This document shows positions 5,294 to 51,317 of a stretch of 64,000 bases of DNA, one piece after another. The notes beneath the pieces are model-generated. The model was not told where the DNA came from and made no database searches. It was given only the letters and a program-made list of their open reading frames with translations. The stretch is from positions 41,453-105,452 of the forward strand of contig VBDU01000080.1 of NCBI GenBank assembly GCA_005883625.1, read 5' to 3'. This DNA is from Chloroflexota bacterium (GTDB lineage Bacteria > Chloroflexota > Limnocylindria > P2-11E). Position 1 is the stretch's first letter; every line of letters starts with the position of its first letter. A program made the translations under genes and the position numbers.

Positions 5294-6013
5294 TTAAGTC
5301 TTTTGCACCGCGAGCACGACCTTTGTCGGTTTGTCCACGCCAGGTGCGTTCTCGAGCGAAACCGCGGCGCCATCTCCGGGCGCGAACGGCGCGCTCAACA
5401 CCACGGTGAACACCCCGTTGGCATCCGCGGTACCCGCCGGGATCGCGGCCTGGCCGCGTAGCACCCACGCTTCCCACGTCTTTCCGGAGGGCGGAGCGGG
5501 AAGCCGCAGGACGAGATACGGCGAACCCTGCGGTGGGATGACGAGCGCGCCGCGCGCGTCCGGCGCATCGGGCGTCGCCGCGAGCGCCACGACTCGGCCC
5601 TCGGCGACGCCGGCGAGGGCGCGCGCGTAGGCGTCCGCATCGCGTCGCGTCTGGCCCACCACCGCGAAGGCAATGACGAGAAGGGCGACCAGCGCGACCG
5701 GCACCACGAGCGGCACGGGGCGGGCCAGGAGCGAGCGCAGCGCGGTGGTCCACGTCGCAGTCCCCACACCCCGCGCGCCGCGCTCGCGCAACACGATCTT
5801 CGTCCGCAGCCCCGCCGGCGGCTCGCGCGTCGCGGCGAGCGCGGCGACGTCGAAGAGCGCCTCGCGATGCGCCGCGACCTCGCGCGCGCACGTGTCGCAT
5901 CGCGCGACATGCGTCTCCACCTCGCGCGCTTCCGCGGCATCGAGCGCGCCGAGCGCGAACGCCGGGAGGTCGTCGGTCGGATGCCGCTGCATGCGGACCG
6001 TCTCGTCGCTCAT
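5294..6013 (-). CDS. Zinc-binding anti-sigma factor (RskA-like) with transmembrane segment
   Basis: HVARCDTCAREVAAH zinc motif, single TM helix, periplasmic C-domain. ATGA overlap with the sigma gene. Confidence 0.7.
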   Translation of the reverse strand: MSDETVRMQRHPTDDLPAFALGALDAAEAREVETHVARCDTCAREVAAHREALFDVAALAATREPPAGLRTKIVLRERGARGVGTATWTTALRSLLARPVPLVVPVALVALLVIAFAVVGQTRRDADAYARALAGVAEGRVVALAATPDAPDARGALVIPPQGSPYLVLRLPAPPSGKTWEAWVLRGQAAIPAGTADANGVFTVVLSAPFAPGDGAAVSLENAPGVDKPTKVVLAVQKT

Positions 6014-6654
6014 GTGTCGCGGGGACTCCGCCCCCGCGTCCCCCCGTCCTCGTCAAGCTCCGCGAGGCGCTCGCGGAGCTTCGCCATCGCGAGCCGCACC
6101 CGGCTCTTCACGGTGCCGAGCGGCGTTCCGGTCCGGGCGGCGATCTCGCGCTGCGAGTAGCCGCCCCAGAAGGCGAGGCCGAGCACGTCGCGCTGCTCCG
6201 CGGGCAGGCCCGCGATCGCCTCGCGCACGCGCTCGGCGCGCAGGCGCGCCAACACGCGCTCGTCCACACGTCCCTCGGCGGTGAGATCGAATGCGGCGTC
6301 GATCATCGTCTCGCGCTCCAGTCGCTTGCCCTTCGTCCGGCGCCAGTCGATGGCGGCATTGCGACAGATCGCGAGCAGCCACGTGCGCACCGATCCGCGC
6401 TCCGCGCGATAGCTTCGCGCCTGGCGCCAGACGGAGTGGAATGCATCCTGGGTGACCTCTTCCGCGGCCTCGGGACTTGCGACCATGCGGAACAGGACGC
6501 CGAAGGCGACGCGACCGTACCGGTCGTAGAGCTCGCCGAGCGCCTCGGCGTCTCCCGCGGCGATCCGCTCGATGAGCCGCATGTCATCCGACCCTTTGTC
6601 GGCCCTTACGACATCGGCGGCATTCTCGGATGACCGGGACCTGTCGACCGGCAC
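6010..6654 (-). CDS. ECF (sigma-70 family) RNA polymerase sigma factor; the real start is probably the internal Met near 6582
   Basis: Region 2 and region 4 motifs (FDVLFRMV..; GYSQREIAARTGTPLGTVKSR). Confidence 0.8.
   Translation of the reverse strand: MPVDRSRSSENAADVVRADKGSDDMRLIERIAAGDAEALGELYDRYGRVAFGVLFRMVASPEAAEEVTQDAFHSVWRQARSYRAERGSVRTWLLAICRNAAIDWRRTKGKRLERETMIDAAFDLTAEGRVDERVLARLRAERVREAIAGLPAEQRDVLGLAFWGGYSQREIAARTGTPLGTVKSRVRLAMAKLRERLAELDEDGGTRGRSPRDT
6019..6045. repeat. G/C hairpin repeat (GCGGGG-loop-CCCCGC plus C-run) inside the ECF sigma 3' end
   Basis: Inverted G-run/C-run, then TCCCCCC. Encodes the Gly/Arg/Pro-rich C-terminal tail. Confidence 0.5.
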
Positions 6655-6655
6655 A

Positions 6656-9600
6656 TTATTGCCACTCGCGGGCGGCGATCTTCACGAAGAGGCGAAGCCC
6701 GTCGAGCCGTTTGGCCAGGACGGAGATGACGCCGTCCACCGTCTGCAGCGCGCCCGCGACGACGATCGCCGATTCGCTGTCCAGGACGCGCTTGTACCGC
6801 TGGTACGTCGCCGGACGGATGATCACGTTCGCCATCCCTGTCTCGTCCTCGAGTGAGAGGAACACGTGGCCTTTCGCGGTCTCGGGGTGCTGTTTCACCA
6901 CCACGGCCCCGGCGATGTGGACGAGCTCGCCGTGACGATGGTCTGCCAGATCGCAGGCGCGAAGGACCCCGCGCCTTTGAAGGTCGTCGCGGTAGAAGTG
7001 CATCACCTGCGGGCCGGTCGGGATGCCGGTGATGCGGTAATCGAGCGCGGTCCGCTCTTGCTCGCCGAGCGCGGGCAGCGCCGGCGCCTCGGTCGTGGGG
7101 AGCGCGAGCGCGCGCCTGGCGTACGAGGGCGAGGTCCGATGCGCATCGCGCGCGCGCCAGAGGAGCGCGCGGCGCGGCTCGCCGAAGCGATCGAACGCGC
7201 CGACGAGCGCGAGATTCCGCAGCGCTTCCTCCTTGAGGCCGGCGCGTGCTGCGAAATCGTCGAAACCCCTGAACGGTCCGCCGCGCCCGCGCTCCTCGAC
7301 GATCGCCTTCGCCTCCGCATCGCCGAGTCCCTTCACGCTCTCGAGCCCGAGCCTCACGTCGTGAACGCGACATGTCCGATGGGCCGCGATCGTCCGCGAT
7401 GTGTCGACTGGATGCGCCGACGAGGCCGCCGAGGCTTCTCGGGATGTCTCGCGTGCTCGCGGGTCCCTTCTCCCCGTCCTGTCGGATGGCTCGGAGCCCC
7501 TGACGGCCGGCTCGCTGGGGGAGAGTCCCGCTCCGCCGCGAGACACCCCTCGCGCCTCGTCAGCCCCGTCGGCACCGGCTCAGTCCCACAGCTCGACAAT
7601 CGCTTTCGCAGAAGACTCGTTCACTTCGACCGGCAGGATCGCGACGCCGTGTCTCTTCGCATCCCCCGCGATAACAGCAGGGCTGTAGAAGCCCATGGGT
7701 TGATTGTTTAGGAGCGCGACATAGAACTCGGCGGGGTAGTAGAGCTTGAGGTGCGCGGTGTGATACGCGGTGAGCGCGAACGCGGCCGCGTGGCTCTTGC
7801 AGAACCCGAACTCCGCGAACCCCGCGATCTGGTGGAAGATCTCGTTCGCGGTCTTCTCGTCGACGCCGTTGCGGCGCGCGCCGTCGACGAACGGACCGCG
7901 CAGCCGCTCCATGTCCGCGCTCGAGCGCGCGCGGCTCATCGCGCGCCGCAACAGGTCGGCCGCTGCCGGGGAGAACCCCGCGACGGTCATCGCGACGCGG
8001 AGGATCTGCTCCTGGAAGAGGATGACTCCGAGCGTCTCCTTCAGCACCGGCTCGAGGAGGGGATGCGCGTATCGCACCGGCTCCTTGCCCTGACGCCGGC
8101 GGATGTATGGATTCACCGCGTTCCCCTGCAGCGGACCGGGGCGGATGATCGCGACCTCCACGACGATGTCCGCGAAGCAGCGCGGCCGCACGCGCGGGAG
8201 CGCCTGGGCCTGCGCGCGGCTCTCCACCTGGAACAGGCCGATCGTGTCGACCTCGCAGATGAGGTCGTAGACCGCCGGGTCGTCCATCGGGATCGTGCCG
8301 AGCTCAAGGCGCTCGCCGTGCCGCGCCTCGATGTCCGCGACCGCGTCCTTCACGAGCGACAGCGTCCGCAGGCCGAGGAGGTCCATCTTCACGAGTCCGA
8401 GGTCCTCCACGTCGCGCTTGTCGAACTGCGCGACGTTGCGCCCGGGCATCGTGGCGCGCTCGATCGGCACGGTGTCCACGAGCGGCTGCGCGGTGATGAG
8501 CATGCCGCCGTTGTGGATCGAGAGATGGCGCGGGAAGTCCGCGATGGCGAGCGTCAGCTCGCGGAAGAGCGGAAAGCGCTCCCGCTCCTTCGCGTCGAAG
8601 ATCTCGAGGAGCCCTTCGAGCGTGTCCGGAAGCGCGCGCGGTCCCTCCCAGCCGTGCTCCGCCTCCCGTCCGGGATGCCGGTAGGCCGGATGCATGGCCG
8701 CGCTCGGGTAGATGGTCGGATCGACGTGGTACTGGTCGATCGACTTCGCCATCCGGTCGATCGTCTCCGCGCGGAAGCCGAGCGCCTTGGCGACCTCGCG
8801 CGAGGCGGAGCGCGCCCGGTACGTCACCACGTTGCAGACCATCGCCGCGTAGCGCTCGCCGTACTTCGCGTAGACGTACTGGATGACCTCCTCGCGGTCG
8901 TTCGTCGCGATGTCGAGGTCGATGTCGGGCATGGTCCGCGAGTCCTCGGTGAGGAAGCGCTCGAAGAGGAGGTCGTGCTTGATCGGGTCGACCTTCGTGA
9001 TGTCGAGGACGTACGCGACGATCGAGTCCGCCGCCGAGCCCCTGCCCTGCGCCGGGATCCGGCGCTCCTTGCAGAAGCGGACGATGTCCCAGTTGATGAG
9101 GAAGAACTCCGCAAGCCCCGTACGGTCGATCACGTCGAGCTCGTGCGCGAGCTGCCGCGAGACGGCCGGCGTGATGCGCGGGTAGCGCTCGCGCGCGCCC
9201 TCCTGGCAGAGGGCATAGAGGAAGGAGAACGCCGTGTGGCCTTCGGGGACCGGGAAGCCCGGGAGGCGGTCCTTCCCCACGAACGTCGAGGGGGCGTCGC
9301 CCCCTCGAACCCCCGGTCCCAGGCCGAGGAGATCGTCGGCGCACGCGTCCGCGATGACGCGCGCGTTCCGGAACGCCTCATCGAAGCGGTCCAGGCGCTG
9401 ACGGAGCGAGACCTCGTCCTTCAGCCAGTACTCGCCGTTCGGCTTGAGCGCCTTCCCCGCCTCGTCGAGCGTGAGCCCGAGATCGATGCAGCGCAGGACG
9501 TCATGGAGCCGCCGCCCCTCCGGGCGCGCGTAGTGGACGTTGTTCGTGACGACGCACCCGAGCCCCTGCTCCCCAGCGAGCGAGGCGAGCGTGTCGCAGA

Positions 9601-10194: not shown

Positions 10195-12058
10195 TCAGGA
10201 CTTGCCCGGCGTGACCGTGGCGCTTGCCGAGGCAGGACCCGAGGCGAGGGTGCCGTCGCTGGCGATCACGCTGACCGTGATGACATCCTCGTTGCTCCCG
10301 TTCCCCTTCACCGACAGGTCGTAGCTGTCGGTCGTCGCCGAGGTGGTCGTCGTGCGCCTCACGACACCGTTCAGCCGCCAGGTGTACGTGAAAGTGAGCG
10401 GATCACGGTCGAGGTCCTGGCCGGCGGCCGTGGCGACGAGCACCGTGCGCGTCGTCGGCTTCGTCGTGTTGAGCGAGACGCCCACGGTCGGGGCCGAGTT
10501 CACGATCGTCGCGCTCGCCGAGGCCGCCCCGCTCACCAGCGTCCCGTCCGACGCGGTGACCTCCACGACCAGGGTGTCGCCGTGATCGCCGTTCCCGGCG
10601 ACACCGAGGTCGAAGCTGTCCGACGTATTTGGTCCCGACGCCGTCTTGCGGACGAGGCCGTTGATCTTCCAAGTGAACGAGTACGTGAGGACATCGCCGT
10701 CCGCGTCCGCGCCGACCGCGGTCGCGGTCACGACCAGGTTCGTGGCGGGTGCGTTCATCTCCAGGGTCACGCTCACCGTCGGCGCGCTGTCCGCAACGAC
10801 GACAGAGGCACTCGCGGTCGAGCTCAGCTGTCCATCGCTCGCGGTGACGGTCACGCTGATCGTGTCGCCGCGGTCGCCGTTACCGGCGACCGATAGATCG
10901 AGCGAGGAGGTCGGGGTCGTACGCGGCCACGATCGCCTGGACGATGTCATTCGTCCGCGGCGTCGACGGGCTGAAGGCGACGCTCGCGATTACCGGCGCG
11001 TGGTTCGCCAGATCGAGCGCCACCAGCGTGCTGTCGAACGTCGCCAGCGTGTTGTAGTTGCCCATATACAGCCGGCCGTCGGCATGGAACAAGGGCGGGC
11101 CCGGCTCGAAGTTCAGTCCCCCGATCGTCTCGGCGACGTCGAACGTCGTGTCGTCGAGCGCGTAGACGCGCCACCCGGATCCGTCCGTGACGTAGATGCG
11201 ATGCCTCGCCGGCGCCAGCGCGAGCCCCATGGGGAAGCCCGGCACCGACGTGGCGTGCAGCGTGGCGAACGTGTCGGGATCGAGGACGTAGAAGGCGGAT
11301 CCCGGGAAAGGCGGACCTTTCGGGTCCGATCCGGCGATGTAGATGCGCTGATCCGTCGGATCGACCGCCAGAGCGAAGCGGAGTGCGGTCGCGAAAGGCA
11401 CCTCCGCGAGCGTCGACAGGTCACGGTCGTCGGCAACGACCAGCACCGGTCGGGTTTCGTCCGCCGTCGTCAGATAGAGATGGTGCCGTCCGGGATCCAC
11501 GGCGACATCGAACCAGGCCCCGTTGAGGGGGCCGGGCTTCGTCGCGACGACCGTGAGCGTGCTCGTGTCGACGACCGCGAGCGACCGCCCTCCGACGTAG
11601 AGGCGGCCGGCGGCGGAGTCAAGCGCGAGACCGATCCCTCCCACAGCGAGGCTCGCGAGCATCGCGCCCGTATCCAGATCGAAGACGTCAAGCGAGACCT
11701 TGTCACCGCTATGGGTCGAGTTCGACGTATACAGTCGCCGCGTGCTCTGATCAGCGAGCACGAAGTTGGCGCTGAGGGTTGTCGTGATGCTCGCAACCAG
11801 GCCGGTCGCCGGATCCACGACCGAAACACGTCCCGTGCCGTCCGGCGCGACGGTCTCGCTGTTCGACACGTAGACCTTCCCGGTCGCGGGATCCGTAGCC
11901 AGGCCGAGGGGCGCCCGCAGCACAGGCCACTTCGCCCTGATCGTCGCGGCGCGCGCGGGCCCGGGTATCGCGACGGCGAGCGCGAGCACGAGGGTGATAC
12001 AGACGGGGACCGTGAGGCGGCGCATGTCTGCGGAACGCTGCCCGAGCGCGTGCGACAA
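10195..12058 (-). CDS. Secreted YVTN/NHL-type beta-propeller protein with three or four tandem Ig-like repeats of about 80 aa; frame switch between about 10880 and 10950
   Basis: Signal peptide MRRLTVPVCITLVLALAVA, YVTN repeats, then repeats SAPTV..V.ATA.G.D.D.D.LT...TW..NG continuing in another frame (ORFs 10880..12058 and 10195..10950). Confidence 0.6.
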
Positions 12059-12631
12059 CGCGAGTGGGAAGGAAGTCCCAATCGATGACCCTCATGGCCA
12101 CGGTGCGCCTGTTCGGCTGTCGCCGTCGGCCGCGTACTATCCCGGCCATGCGAACGCTGTACGGACGAAGGCTCGTCGAGGTGGCACCGACCCGAACACG
12201 CTCGCCATCGCGCTCGACGCGAGCACCGACAGGCTCATCGATGGTGCACGCCTGGCCCGGCGACACGGCGTGCCGAACGTCCTCTTCGTGGTCTCCTCCG
12301 TCGAGCGGCTCCCGGAACTGCTCGGCGGGATCGCCGATGAGGCGACGATCCACTTCCCCTGGGGGTCGCTGCTGCGGGGTGTGACCTGCGGCGACGAGGC
12401 GGTGCTCGCACCGCTGGCGCACCTGCTGCGCACCGGCGGCCGGCTCGAGCTCGTCCTGCAGGCGAGCGACGTCGCCGTGGACGCGTTCGAGCGGCACTGC
12501 CTCGTGCTCTGCGAACGACGCCCGGCGACGGCCGCGGAGGTCACGAGGACGAGATCGAGCTGGGCGAAACGGCTCGGGATCGGCCCGCAGCGTCCCGCGT
12601 TCGTGTTCCGCTTCGAGCGGATCCGCGAGCG

Positions 12632-12880
12632 TTAGTCCATGACCCGCTGCAGCCACCAGGCGCCGGTCCGCCGATCGCCGTACACGTCGCACACGAGGCC
12701 GTCGGCCGTGCGGAGCGTGAGGTAGTCGCGCGCGACGCCGTCCTTCCACCAGTCGGCCTCGACGCGCCAGCGCCGCATCGTCTCCACGACCGTGTGCCGC
12801 TGGCCGGCGACGAGCAGCCCCACGAGATCGCCCTCGTCCCACACCAGACGCGCCGGAAGGGGTTCCGCGAAGAGCCTCAT
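12632..12880 (-). CDS. Small Trp-rich hypothetical protein (82 aa) translationally coupled to imuB (ATGA overlap)
   Basis: MRLFAEPLPARLVWDEGDLVGLLVAGQRHTVVETMRRWRVEADWWKDG... has diverse composition, unlike the artefact frames. Its start overlaps the imuB stop. Confidence 0.5.
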   Translation of the reverse strand: MRLFAEPLPARLVWDEGDLVGLLVAGQRHTVVETMRRWRVEADWWKDGVARDYLTLRTADGLVCDVYGDRRTGAWWLQRVMD

Positions 12881-16328: not shown

Positions 16329-16393
16329 GCGGTGGAATCAGTGTGCGGGGTCGCGCGATGAGGCGCGTTGCAGCCGGGTCACTCCTCGTTCTG

Positions 16394-16486
16394 CGAGAGT
16401 GCATGGGAGTCGAACCCACCACGGAACGCAAGCGCCCCGTCAACGGTTTTGAAGACCGAGGAGCTCACCGGAGCCCCCGCACTCTC
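16394..16486 (-). tRNA. selC: tRNA-Sec (selC), anticodon UCA
   Basis: 8-bp acceptor GAGAGTGC/GCACTCTC, anticodon loop CUUCAAA, long variable arm, T-arm GGGTTCGACTCCC, discriminator G. Strong similarity to E. coli selC in the D/anticodon and T arms. Confidence 0.7.
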
Positions 16487-27000: not shown

Positions 27001-28254
27001 ATGCCGTATCTGTCCGAGATCCAGCACCGGACGGTGATCGAACCGAACGGCGACGAGGTGGGGAAGCTCGCGGACGTCGCGGTGGTCCCGCAGGGCCAGT
27101 TCCCCGCGGCCCAGTGGGCGATCCTCGCGACGCGGAACGGCGAGAAGGTGCTGCGCTGGGCCGACCTCGCCCCCGAGATCGGGCACTTCCGGCTGCGCTC
27201 GCGCCTCGCGAACACGCCCGACCAGCAGCTGCCGGCCGAGGCCCTCCGCCTCGCGCGCGACCTTCTCGACAAGCAGATCGTCGATACGCACGGCGCGAAG
27301 GTCGTGCGGGTGAACGACCTCCAGCTCTCGGAGGTCGAAGGCCAGCTGCGGCTGGTCGGCGCGGACGTCGGGATGCGCGGGATCTTCCGGCGGATCGGCG
27401 CGGAGCGTCTGGCCGAGCGCGCCGCCGGGATCGTCGGCCGGAAACTGCCGCGCGGGATCATCCCGTGGCACCTCGTCGAACCCCTGCAATCGGCCGACGC
27501 AGCGGTCCGTCTCACGGTGCCGCACGCGAAGCTCGCGCTCCTGCACCCCGCCGACATCGCCGACATCGTCGAGGAGATGACCGCGGACGAGCGGGTGGCC
27601 GTCTTCGAGCAGCTCGACGCCGAGACCGCGGCCGAGGCGCTCGCCGAGGTCGAGCCGGAGATGCAGGCGGCGATCGTCAGCGACCTCGACGAGGAGCGCG
27701 CCGCCGACATCCTCGAGGAGATGGACCCCGACGAGGCCGCCGACCTCCTCCAGGACCTCCCCGAGGAGCGTCGCGAGGAGCTCGTCGAGCTCATGGAGAA
27801 GGAGGAGAAGCAGGACGTCGAGGAGCTCCTCACCTACGCCGAGGACTCAGCCGGCGGGATCATGACGACCGACTACGTCGCGCTCGCCGGCGGGCTCACC
27901 GCGGCGCAGGCGATCGACGAGCTCCGCGTGCGCAAGCCCGATCCGCAGCTCACCTATTACCTCTACGTCGTGGACGACGAGGGCCGGCTCGAGGGCGTGA
28001 TCTCGCTGCGCGACCTCGTGGTAGCGCCCCCGGAGACGAAGCTGACCGCCGCGATGGATCCCCACGTGCTCAAGGTCGAGGCCGAGACCCCAAAGGAGGA
28101 GGTCGCGTCGCTCATCGCGAAGTACGACCTGCTGGCGCTCCCCGTCGTGGACGCGCGGCGCAAGCTCCTCGGCACGGTGACCGTCGACGACGTCGTCGAG
28201 CTCATGCTCCCGCGCGGCTGGAAGAAGAGGTCGCTTCGGTCGATCGCTAGGTGA
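27001..28254 (+). CDS. PRC-barrel plus MgtE N-domain plus tandem CBS protein (soluble, MgtE sensor half; no TM domain)
   Basis: PRC barrel N-terminus, acidic MgtE_N helix bundle (DEERAADILEEMDPDEAADLLQDL), CBS pair. Overlaps the downstream Nramp gene by 4 nt. Confidence 0.8.
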   Translation: MPYLSEIQHRTVIEPNGDEVGKLADVAVVPQGQFPAAQWAILATRNGEKVLRWADLAPEIGHFRLRSRLANTPDQQLPAEALRLARDLLDKQIVDTHGAKVVRVNDLQLSEVEGQLRLVGADVGMRGIFRRIGAERLAERAAGIVGRKLPRGIIPWHLVEPLQSADAAVRLTVPHAKLALLHPADIADIVEEMTADERVAVFEQLDAETAAEALAEVEPEMQAAIVSDLDEERAADILEEMDPDEAADLLQDLPEERREELVELMEKEEKQDVEELLTYAEDSAGGIMTTDYVALAGGLTAAQAIDELRVRKPDPQLTYYLYVVDDEGRLEGVISLRDLVVAPPETKLTAAMDPHVLKVEAETPKEEVASLIAKYDLLALPVVDARRKLLGTVTVDDVVELMLPRGWKKRSLRSIAR

Positions 28255-36528: not shown

Positions 36529-37317
36529 CTAGTTTGAGACCGCGATCCCGTCGAGCGTCGTACCAGCGGCGTGGACCTCGCGCTCGGCGAACGTGCGCAT
36601 AGTGATCGCTCGGCCACGGCCTTCGACGCGCCAGGCGCCGGCCTCCTCGACGACTGCGGTGTCCTCGTCGATCCCCAGGCCGCGCAGCCCGACCGGCCAG
36701 TGCTCGATCCAGTCGTTGACCCGCTCGGGTGGGAAACCGGTCAGGAGATCGAAGTGCGGGATCACGAACAGCCCGGGGAGCATCCCGAGCCCGTCCCGGA
36801 TCGAAACGGACCGCGGGAACCCCTTGTCGTCGAACTGGTCGGGCGCATAGCTCTTCTCGCCGAGCATCATCGCGCCGGCGCTCGAGCCGGCCAGGATCGC
36901 GCCCTCGCGATTGCGCGCCAGGACCGATCGCCAGAACGGCGTGTTCTCGAGCACGCCGATCGCGTACTGGGGGCGGCCGCCGGAGAAGTAGATCCAGTCG
37001 GCCCGGCGGACCTCGCGCTCCCAGCGCGGATCGTGGGCGTCCTCGCGGCGAACGACCATCACACCGACGGCGTCCGCGCCGAGGGCGGTGAAGTGCGCGA
37101 TCCCGTTGTCGGCCCAGGCCGACGGCGTCTCCTCCTCGCCGGACGCGGTCGGCACGATCGCCACGAACGGGCGTGCCTTCGGAATCGTGGCGAGGATCCG
37201 CCGATCGAGGTCGTCCATGACCGGCGTGAACTCGCCCGAGCCGAGAAGCACGAGGCGACCTCGCCTCACGCGCTCTTTCCGACGAGCAGATCGGGCCGGC
37301 CGTGGAAGCGCTTCCAC
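36529..37317 (-). CDS. Peptidase S51 family (cyanophycinase/peptidase E-like class I glutamine-amidotransferase fold)
   Basis: GGRPQY...AILAGSSAGAMMLGE nucleophile motif (GxSAGA). Confidence 0.7.
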   Translation of the reverse strand: MEALPRPARSARRKERVRRGRLVLLGSGEFTPVMDDLDRRILATIPKARPFVAIVPTASGEEETPSAWADNGIAHFTALGADAVGVMVVRREDAHDPRWEREVRRADWIYFSGGRPQYAIGVLENTPFWRSVLARNREGAILAGSSAGAMMLGEKSYAPDQFDDKGFPRSVSIRDGLGMLPGLFVIPHFDLLTGFPPERVNDWIEHWPVGLRGLGIDEDTAVVEEAGAWRVEGRGRAITMRTFAEREVHAAGTTLDGIAVSN

Positions 37318-50418: not shown

Positions 50419-51317
50419 GCGCGCCGGACCTGCGCCCCCGCCGCGCGCACGCGCACGACGCGTCCCCGCGCGCTCGTCCCGCGATCGTGCGCGGCCTCTT
50501 CCATGGCCGCGACCACGCGCGCGGCGAGCCGCGCCGGAGCGAACGCGACGATCGCCGGTCCCGCGCCGGAGAGCGCGGCGCCGAACGCGCCTGCGCCGCG
50601 CGCAGCCCCGACGACGTCGTCGAGGTCAGGCACGAGCTTCGCGCGCGCGGGTTGATGCAGCCGGTCCGCCATCGCGATCGAAAGGAGCGCACCGTCGGAG
50701 CGCAGCACCGCGGCGAGGAGCGCCGCGGCGTGCGCGAGGTTGAAGACCGCGTCGGCGCGCGAGACGTTCGGCGAGAGGACCGCGCGGGCCGTCTCCGTCT
50801 CGAGCGCCTCCTTGGGGATGAGCAGGCAGATGCGCCACGCCCGCGGGAACGCGATGCGGGTCGCGACCGGGCCGGCGTCGTCGGGGACCGCGACCGTGAA
50901 CGCACCGTAGAGCGCCGCCGCGACGTTGTCGGCGTGGCCTTCGACCTCGCTCGCGACACGCAGCAGCGAGCGCCGATCCAGCGGCTCGCCGAGGAGGGCG
51001 TTCGCCGCGACGACCCCGCCGACGATCGCCGCGGCGCTCGAGCCCAGGCCTCGCCCGACCGGTATCGCGGAGCGCTGCGTGACGTGCTGCGGCGGGAGCG
51101 TCGCCCCCGCGGCCTTCGCGGCGGCACGCGCGCCGACGACGAACAGGTTGTCGTCGCCGGTCGGTACGCCCTCGCCATCGCCGTCGATCGAGACGGCCCA
51201 TGCGCGCGCCGGCCGCACGTCGTACTCCGCGAGAAGCGGGAGGGCGATCGCGAACGAGTCGAATCCGGGGCCGAGATTCGCGCTCGACGCGGGAACGCGG
51301 ACCCGAAGCTCGGTCAC
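50415..51317 (-). CDS. thrB: Homoserine kinase
   Basis: GHMP kinase motifs PASSANLGPGFD and GLGSSAAA. GTGA overlap with thrC. Confidence 0.8.
   Translation of the reverse strand: MTELRVRVPASSANLGPGFDSFAIALPLLAEYDVRPARAWAVSIDGDGEGVPTGDDNLFVVGARAAAKAAGATLPPQHVTQRSAIPVGRGLGSSAAAIVGGVVAANALLGEPLDRRSLLRVASEVEGHADNVAAALYGAFTVAVPDDAGPVATRIAFPRAWRICLLIPKEALETETARAVLSPNVSRADAVFNLAHAAALLAAVLRSDGALLSIAMADRLHQPARAKLVPDLDDVVGAARGAGAFGAALSGAGPAIVAFAPARLAARVVAAMEEAAHDRGTSARGRVVRVRAAGAQVRRA

Follow-up and report, generated by a model that had tools for sequence, protein, structure and literature searches.

The error-prone DNA polymerase gene dnaE2/imuC is interrupted by a single in-frame TGA codon in a 64,000-nucleotide (nt) stretch of contig VBDU01000080.1 from a soil Chloroflexota bacterium; this whole stretch is referred to below as the window, and the gene lies on its minus strand. 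The interruption is tentatively attributed to a non-programmed, very recent and strain-private lesion, a real multi-nucleotide mutation in an otherwise intact gene, and this reading, taken narrowly, stops just short of being probable. In the proposed event TGC GAC GGC would have become TGG GAC TGA by three substitutions confined to 7 nt; the site is the 5' foot of a palindromic insert of the kind represented by repetitive extragenic palindromic (REP) elements and Rickettsia palindromic elements (RPEs). The insert is part of a wider pattern, as hairpin-forming DNA appears, from comparison of sequences, to have accumulated in the same loop of the polymerase across phyla.

The assignment to dnaE2/imuC follows from the series of Pfam domains and from matches to the NCBIfam model for error-prone DNA polymerase, NF004225, on both halves of the gene. 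The N-terminal part covers the PHP domain, palm and thumb (DNA_pol3_alpha), fingers (DNA_pol3_finger) and the first strand of the beta-hairpin of the HhH domain (...AKAIVEL), and its open reading frame (ORF) closes with ...SSAKAIVELWD directly before the TGA. In the continuation of the frame follow the rest of the insert, a clade motif (HPVDTSRTIAAHRTCR), the second hairpin strand HDVRLG, the HhH domain (HHH_6), the OB fold and a TAA. The NF004225 match, which ends at model position 806 upstream of the stop, resumes at position 808 only 68 residues into the C-terminal part, with an insert of about 70 residues that is absent from the family model; the two scores (881 and 187 bits) together exceed the 939-bit cut-off, which neither half reaches alone. 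These results bear out the initial annotation of this DNA, in which dnaE2 was described as cut by one in-frame TGA after 844 codons (WD-TGA), with PHP, palm and fingers upstream, HhH and OB downstream, and both halves well formed. The 296 open codons that it placed after the linker AGADGADEARG are correct if counted from the first GTG (7546..7544), whereas the frame itself is open for 307. A single uninterrupted dnaE2/imuC ORF is absent from the window, where the TGA at 7582..7580 intervenes, and present in the near-identical contig L082. The positions of these features are collected in Table 1.

Table 1. The interrupted dnaE2/imuC gene, its palindromic insert and the tRNA-Sec gene, in coordinates of the window
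Feature	Position	Strand	Basis or remark
dnaE2/imuC N-terminal part, 844 codons	10114..7583	-	ORF call, Pfam, NF004225 881 bits to model position 806
Cluster of three window-private substitutions (7580, 7582, 7586)	7580..7586	-	All transversions; TGC GAC GGC to TGG GAC TGA
In-frame TGA	7580..7582	-	Homologous codon GGC (Gly) in ~99.4%-identical contigs L082 and L001
Frame continuation, 307 sense codons (7579..6659) and TAA (6658..6656)	6656..7579	-	ORF call, Pfam, NF004225 808-1037
Imperfect palindrome, single long hairpin, 162 nt	7414..7575	-	Outer arms 7416-7435 / 7554-7573; shuffle z = -6.67
First in-frame GTG past the stop, 11 codons (AGADGADEARG) downstream	7544..7546	-	GAGG 8 nt upstream, within hairpin 5' arm
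tRNA-Sec gene	16393..16486	-	75.2 bits; 8.8 kb from the TGA

The stop is missing from the closest relatives. Two independent contigs, each about 99.4% identical to the window, were available for comparison: L082, a JGI metagenome contig found by a DNA pattern scan, and L001, the ENA scaffold of protein P0001. Where the window reads TGG GAC TGA GCC, L082 reads TGC GAC GGC GCC and L001 reads TGC GAC GGC ACC; the corresponding peptides are ...ELCDGAGADG... in L082, whose dnaE2 is uninterrupted over 1152 codons, and ...ELCDGTGADG... in L001. P0001 itself, recovered by protein search and 99% identical, reads through the stop site, and the protein fragments P0002 and P0070 likewise read LCDG. The alignment of L082 with the window is gap-free for 8700 nt, with 99.37% identity. 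A three-way comparison over 7380 shared nt leaves the window with six private differences, three of which fall within 7 nt at 7580-7586, and outside this cluster the gene of the window differs from that of L082 at merely five positions in 3459 nt, four of them synonymous. Because these differences are so few, the gene shows no decay, downstream of the stop included, and by parsimony the stop is derived and private to the window. Since the background rate is about 0.04%, the cluster is not explicable by independent point mutations: the stop either arose by a change of three bases within 7 nt or is an error of the same size. Neither the exact 844-residue product nor a neighbouring gene product of the window is on record, and the metagenome pattern scan found the Gly allele alone (L082). 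A protein search with the last 300 residues returned none ending in ELWD, which is weak evidence, as the collection does not return full-length DnaE2. The L001 dnaE2 has defects of its own, namely an N run replacing 31 nt (6891-6900) and a 17-nt deletion (about 7562).

What the initial annotation took for a low-complexity linker between domains proves to be a translated palindromic insert within the loop of the HHH_6 beta-hairpin. When 191 nt (7590 to 7400) are folded, one long hairpin with a minimum free energy of -120.6 kcal/mol and a main stem at 7575..7414 is obtained; dinucleotide shuffles give -90.9 +/- 4.5 kcal/mol, and none of 200 is as stable. The insert is the most structured of 1596 overlapping 180-nt segments of the 64 kb, in a scan with a continuous tail, the next segments, chosen after the fact, having shuffle z scores of about -4 and branched folds. 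The TGA sits 4-6 nt 5' of the main stem, and the hairpin energy is equal for the TGA and Gly alleles (-120.9 vs -122.0 kcal/mol). The insert is translated in frame, and the palindrome is equally present in the open-frame sister strains. Neither the 64-kb window nor the roughly 1 Mb of retrieved loci contains a second copy, and a tandem-repeat origin was rejected, with just a weak 9-nt repeat of 2.2 copies being found. The loop that holds the insert corresponds to the interval between residues 818 and 831 of E. coli alpha, at the tip of the beta-hairpin with which the HhH domain starts. In an AlphaFold model of the intact allele, insert residues 196-247 have a predicted local distance difference test (pLDDT) score below 50 and no secondary structure, and are flanked by strands at 188-191 and 267-270; the insert is thus predicted to be disordered, and it links the two beta-strands that begin the HhH (beta-binding) domain. 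Almost any sequence is tolerated in this loop. The clade motif within it (about 7363-7410) comprises some 20 additional residues that are conserved, HPxDxSxTIAxHRxCRxH, Cys and His among them; it is lacking in more distant DnaE2 proteins, where the loop has about 4 residues. Elsewhere in the window, the coding segments 2380-2580 and 27190-27390, the latter with an inverted repeat at 27218-27248 / 27329-27359, have stable branched folds (z = -4.3 and -4.1) and could be further intragenic palindromic inserts.

Inserts unrelated in sequence occupy the same place in four other lineages of the same clade (Chloroflexota, Limnocylindria in the source annotations), each of them forming one long hairpin (z = -5.1, -2.7, -3.2 and -7.5); two further inserts of the clade have z scores of -3.8 and -6.5, and short-loop relatives without an insert (L002-L005) have scores of at least 0. 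The tendency extends to species representatives of several phyla, among which 37 dnaE2 loops have a mean z of -2.9 (21 below -2, 16 below -3, extreme about -9), as against a mean of -0.18 for 71 length-matched control segments of the same genes (3 below -2, none below -3, extreme -2.85). Because the reading frame is preserved in every locus examined, the inserts are normally translated and not skipped. In the Acidobacteriota, the loop inserts are copies of multi-copy palindromic repeats, which are present as well between genes and, some 300-500 nt further into the same dnaE2 gene, at another insertion site. Inserts of this multi-copy kind are found at L069, L020, L047, L053, L030, L043 and L033 (Acidobacteriota and other dnaE2 loci), the repeat of L069 reading CACAGAGACACAGAG...CTCTGTGTCTCTGTG. 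For the clade of the window, alignments hint that some inserts may have grown in place: L086 corresponds to L089 and L090 with one more palindrome added at the tip of the hairpin, and in L088 the insert's 3' arm mirrors 5' sequence that was already there.

The two origins left by the three-base cluster, mutation and error, both have evidence to recommend them. In favour of a real allele, there is no indel relative to L082 over 8.7 kb, the assembly is otherwise clean, and the changes fit no simple dephasing pattern, with only one of the three equal to a neighbouring base. Systematic error at a motif, by methylation or otherwise, was rejected, as 8 of 9 GGCGCC, 15 of 15 GCCGGC and 84 of 84 CCGG sites are identical to L082. 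A templated quasi-palindrome origin was rejected as well, no k-mer of the window allele of 8 nt or more being found elsewhere within 6501-8700, and among the three changes just the G-to-U adds a base pair to the hairpin. Weighing against a genuine mutation, all three changes within 7 nt are transversions, as opposed to transitions in 22 of 28 other single-nucleotide polymorphisms among these strains. The cluster moreover lies 5-11 nt past the end of the hairpin (7575) and 7-13 nt past the outer arm 7554-7573; sequence-specific Illumina miscalls reportedly set in at such places, inverted repeats and GGC motifs being the two reported triggers of miscall runs (PMC3141275). P0070, from another dataset, has apparent G-biased miscalls in the same arm together with a frameshifted tail. 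A second sample with the TGA allele was not found either, which is weak evidence, the collections being incomplete.

These observations make it quite possible, though short of probable and slightly less likely than a real mutation, that the stop is a sequencing or assembly artefact, the true sequence being TGC GAC GGC and the window allele the result of hairpin-induced miscalls or of an erroneous minor path through the k-mers at the palindrome's foot. Clustered transversions just beyond a strong inverted repeat, the GGC-rich intact allele (...GACGGCGCCGG...), the pristine remainder of the gene, and the damage in or near the insert in other assemblies (the TAA of L090, P0070, and several protein fragments that end inside it) all point in this direction. 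The gap-free alignment and the mismatch with a dephasing pattern argue against it, as do the unchanged GGCGCC sites, by which a motif-wide error is excluded, and the fact that De Bruijn assemblers normally retain k-mers with many supporting reads.

If the lesion is real, as is tentatively preferred, translation would end after residue 844 and would yield a polymerase core that lacks the HhH and OB domains. Ordinary low-level UGA read-through could still supply some full-length protein, and a 296-residue HhH-OB fragment could arise from the GTG at 7546 by translational coupling; the two pieces might still assemble, because the break lies in a loop that is predicted to be disordered. Otherwise the gene would be an incipient pseudogene.

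The split dnaE of cyanobacteria is the comparison case for a two-gene arrangement, and the stop could in principle mark a natural, conserved division of dnaE2 into two genes. The well-formed halves would suit such an arrangement, as would the contig L090, which is broken at the same place, but the comparative evidence makes it highly unlikely. In all 80 dnaE2 loci of GTDB species representatives the frame stays open where the fingers end, across the loop and as far as the C-terminus; all 81 protein relatives containing both flanking motifs read through the loop, the segment from LPxDVN to HDVRxG varying from 30 to 91 residues among them; and the closest strains are continuous as well. Pfam detects no intein or Hint domain in either half, but polymerase, HhH and OB domains alone. 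The initial annotation had named orthologues that end at this point as the mark of a natural split, and had proposed comparing orthologues there: L090 alone stops at the same codon offset, the near-identical strains have GGC (Gly), and the species-level orthologues and close relatives are open, by which a split is refuted as a conserved feature. The three-piece genes of L083 (3124-7292; 594 + 448 + 98 residues) and L084 (2164-6409; 665 + 479 + 235 residues) lend it no support, as they look like the product of indel errors in long-read assemblies. The protein fragments P0206 and P0208 of other clades, which end in the loop, were rejected as natural splits, being three-piece gene calls on long-read-style contigs, and L089 was rejected as a second split in the insert, its defect being a deletion and frameshift further upstream, at residues 763-800 (L089 1352-1372). 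A literature search on dnaE2 pseudogenes returned nothing relevant.

The exception, L090 (JGI Ga0643825_0072871, insert family B), reads ...AKAVCETAS-TAA-GDASEGAPVLAG... in frame. Its TAA, at 186-188, is the fourth codon past the AKAxxE motif, which matches the offset of the window (AKAIVELWD-TGA), and lies 5 nt 5' of a hairpin of unrelated sequence (z = -6.5); its relatives L086 and L089 have sense codons at that position. Because two random nonsense events rarely coincide at the same offset, the hairpin is probably involved in the recurrence, be it as a miscall trigger, a mutation hot spot or a stop-tolerant place. The two loci also share an in-frame GTG soon after the stop, 8 codons past it with GAGGGGG upstream in L090 and 11 codons past it with GAGG upstream in the window, and in both the pre-stop codon is found again as the fourth codon past the stop (GAC TGA GCC GGT GCC GAC in the window, TCC TAA GGT GAC GCG TCC in L090). 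The codon-repeat and GTG patterns are two cases noticed after the fact and are treated as leads only. A repeated in-frame stop at a hairpin foot goes beyond what was found described, and as a phenomenon it is unproven.

Such a recurrence invites the view that the stop is tolerated or functional and coupled to the hairpin, with full-length or two-piece ImuC being made by read-through, by a hop or by coupled re-initiation at the GTG; stops at this exact position would then be nearly neutral or regulatory. The sole support proper for a stop that is used or tolerated is its presence at the same offset in two lineages with unrelated inserts. The GTG with its GAGG-type motif, the recurring pre-stop codon and the location of the break in a predicted disordered loop fit the same view. 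Signs of purifying selection on widespread in-frame stops in bacteria have been reported (PMC7918605), which also speaks for it. Against it stand the absence of the stop from the 99.4%-identical strains, from L086 and L089 and from every species-level orthologue, the equal presence of hairpin and GTG in intact alleles, the preservation of the frame by inserts everywhere examined, which implies normal translation, and the fact that the codon repeat amounts to two cases found by looking. On balance a tolerated stop is improbable. Its more specific form, in which the hairpin with its embedded GAGG-GTG drives read-through, a short hop or re-initiation, or in which the stop is an on/off switch for the error-prone polymerase, is about as improbable.

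Recoding of the UGA as selenocysteine (Sec) is scarcely credible, despite the presence of a tRNA-Sec gene, which the initial annotation correctly placed about 9 kb away, and of a stable hairpin 3' of the UGA. The aligned residue in L082, L001, P0002 and P0070 is Gly (GGC), not Cys or Sec; the position lies in a hypervariable disordered loop without a catalytic role; and the alleles with a Gly codon have the identical 162-nt palindrome. Folding of the 80 nt that follow the UGA is no more stable than that of shuffled sequence (z = 0.36), and no Rfam family, those of the selenocysteine insertion sequence (SECIS) included, matches 7350-7650 at E-values up to 10. The earlier statement that no SECIS-like hairpin directly follows the TGA needs correction, as it overlooked the very stable 162-nt hairpin (about -110 to -120 kcal/mol) that starts 4-6 nt 3' of the codon; this hairpin is not SECIS-like, however, and the Gly-allele relatives have it too. 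Even taken together, selenocysteine and a conserved split are very unlikely. The earlier ranking, with a recent nonsense mutation or base-call error first and recoding far behind, is upheld by the Gly codon of the sister strains, the lack of decay and the lack of support for Sec. An alternative genetic code, with TGA read as Gly or Trp, is excluded: TGA is the commonest stop in the window and ends 34 of 59 candidate ORFs. It terminates, for example, a gene for a PALP enzyme at 51314, where the Pfam match is complete before the TGA, and it takes part in an ATGA start/stop overlap at 28251-28254. The tRNA-Sec gene shows that Sec machinery is present in the organism, and it is not linked to the TGA of dnaE2. 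It is flanked by genes for an MFS transporter and an alpha/beta-hydrolase; no sel gene or obvious selenoprotein gene lies near it, selA, selB and selD not having been searched for.

The neighbourhood of dnaE2 lacks imuA and imuB, in that adjacent genes have no IMS or ImuB match. Downstream, at 5294-6654 (-), lies an ECF sigma / RskA-type anti-sigma pair. The order dnaE2-ECF sigma is kept in L001 and L089, with the RskA-type anti-sigma gene next in the window and in L001, and this order may hint at gene regulation in the clade. Upstream are an ORF without a family (10195-10950) and a beta-propeller-like one (10880-12058, -) with weak YncE-like matches. The region 10616-12184 is hypervariable between otherwise 99.4%-identical strains: divergence from L082 is 14% over 10616-10908, beyond which the sequences cannot be aligned, and L001 likewise diverges from the window at 10616-12184. 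A boundary of recombination or a rapidly evolving surface protein may account for this pattern. The ORF at 11874-12635 (+) matches 16S rRNA A1408 methyltransferases of the WarA/KamB/NpmA type (E = 1.7e-35; 122 bits, below the 305-bit cut-off), and its homologue in L001 has a Pfam NpmA match; judged by sequence, its product is probably a relative of the methyltransferases of the aminoglycoside-resistance type. Further along, a single frame at 37269-39494 (-) combines a catalytic domain of the class I Cys-tRNA synthetase type with a family 2 glycosyltransferase domain, and may represent either a fused gene or two genes that share one frame.

For annotation, the locus is best entered as dnaE2/imuC with a single in-frame stop, that is, as a pseudogene or an assembly problem, and neither as two genes nor as a selenoprotein. 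In a wider context, one beta-hairpin loop of ImuC/DnaE2 gathers translated hairpin inserts in the Chloroflexota, the Acidobacteriota and, to judge by their long loops, the Dormibacterota, a result that extends the earlier observation of REP elements decorating repair polymerases. Such palindromes are breakpoints for assemblies and gene calls, and in-frame stops or frameshifts adjacent to them deserve read-level checking before they are interpreted biologically. Should the stops at the hairpin foot prove to be real and tolerated, they would be a naturally occurring example of a polymerase divisible at a disordered loop.

In known programmed signals, among them the hop of T4 gene 60, read-through of the murine leukemia virus (MuLV) type and the bacterial SECIS, a stop is followed by a nearby stable hairpin. 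The window resembles programmed bypass and read-through sites in its stop, in the hairpin within a few nt and in the downstream recurrence of the pre-stop codon, and differs from them in the lack of conservation, in a generic palindrome that occurs also without the stop and in an insert that is normally translated; the conserved stop and signal of such systems are not found, the stop being limited to the window and L090. Of the stop codons, UGA is the most prone to leak (Belinky et al. 2021, PMC7918605), and the gene is comparable to the leaky-UGA or nonsense pseudogenes of that study in having a single in-frame TGA and being otherwise undegraded. Unlike the maintained in-frame stops treated there, that of the window is conserved in no relative and bears no sign of maintenance. 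With DnaE2/ImuC as modelled in NF004225, the gene shares the domain order PHP, pol III alpha core, fingers, HhH and OB, and differs from it in the interrupting stop, in some 70 residues inserted between model positions 806 and 808, and in having no imuA/imuB alongside.

The closest parallel to the insert is provided by REP elements within genes, many of which are replication and repair genes; the REP-tagged proteins include DnaE2, as well as DnaE in R. conorii (Di Nocera et al. 2013, PMC3733652). The same paper reports GTAG- or CGTC-tagged REPs in DnaE2 and recalls the in-frame RPEs of ORFs. Like these elements, the insert of the window is a short imperfect palindrome that forms a stable hairpin and occupies a surface loop of a functional protein without breaking the frame; orthologues from related lineages lack it, different lineages have different elements at that site, and the inserts of the Acidobacteriota are demonstrably copies of multi-copy repeats. 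It differs in having no second copy in the DNA searched, so that mobility and copy number are unproven for its lineage, and although the base of its stem, GCCGACG...CGTCGGC, carries GACG/CGTC, it could not be assigned to a described REP family. The stop itself, then, is ordinary, and the in-frame palindrome beside it belongs with the intragenic REP/RPE-like elements already reported in DnaE2. Beyond what was found described, the same loop carries hairpin-forming inserts in most of the sampled species across phyla, a modest extension of what is known of these elements.

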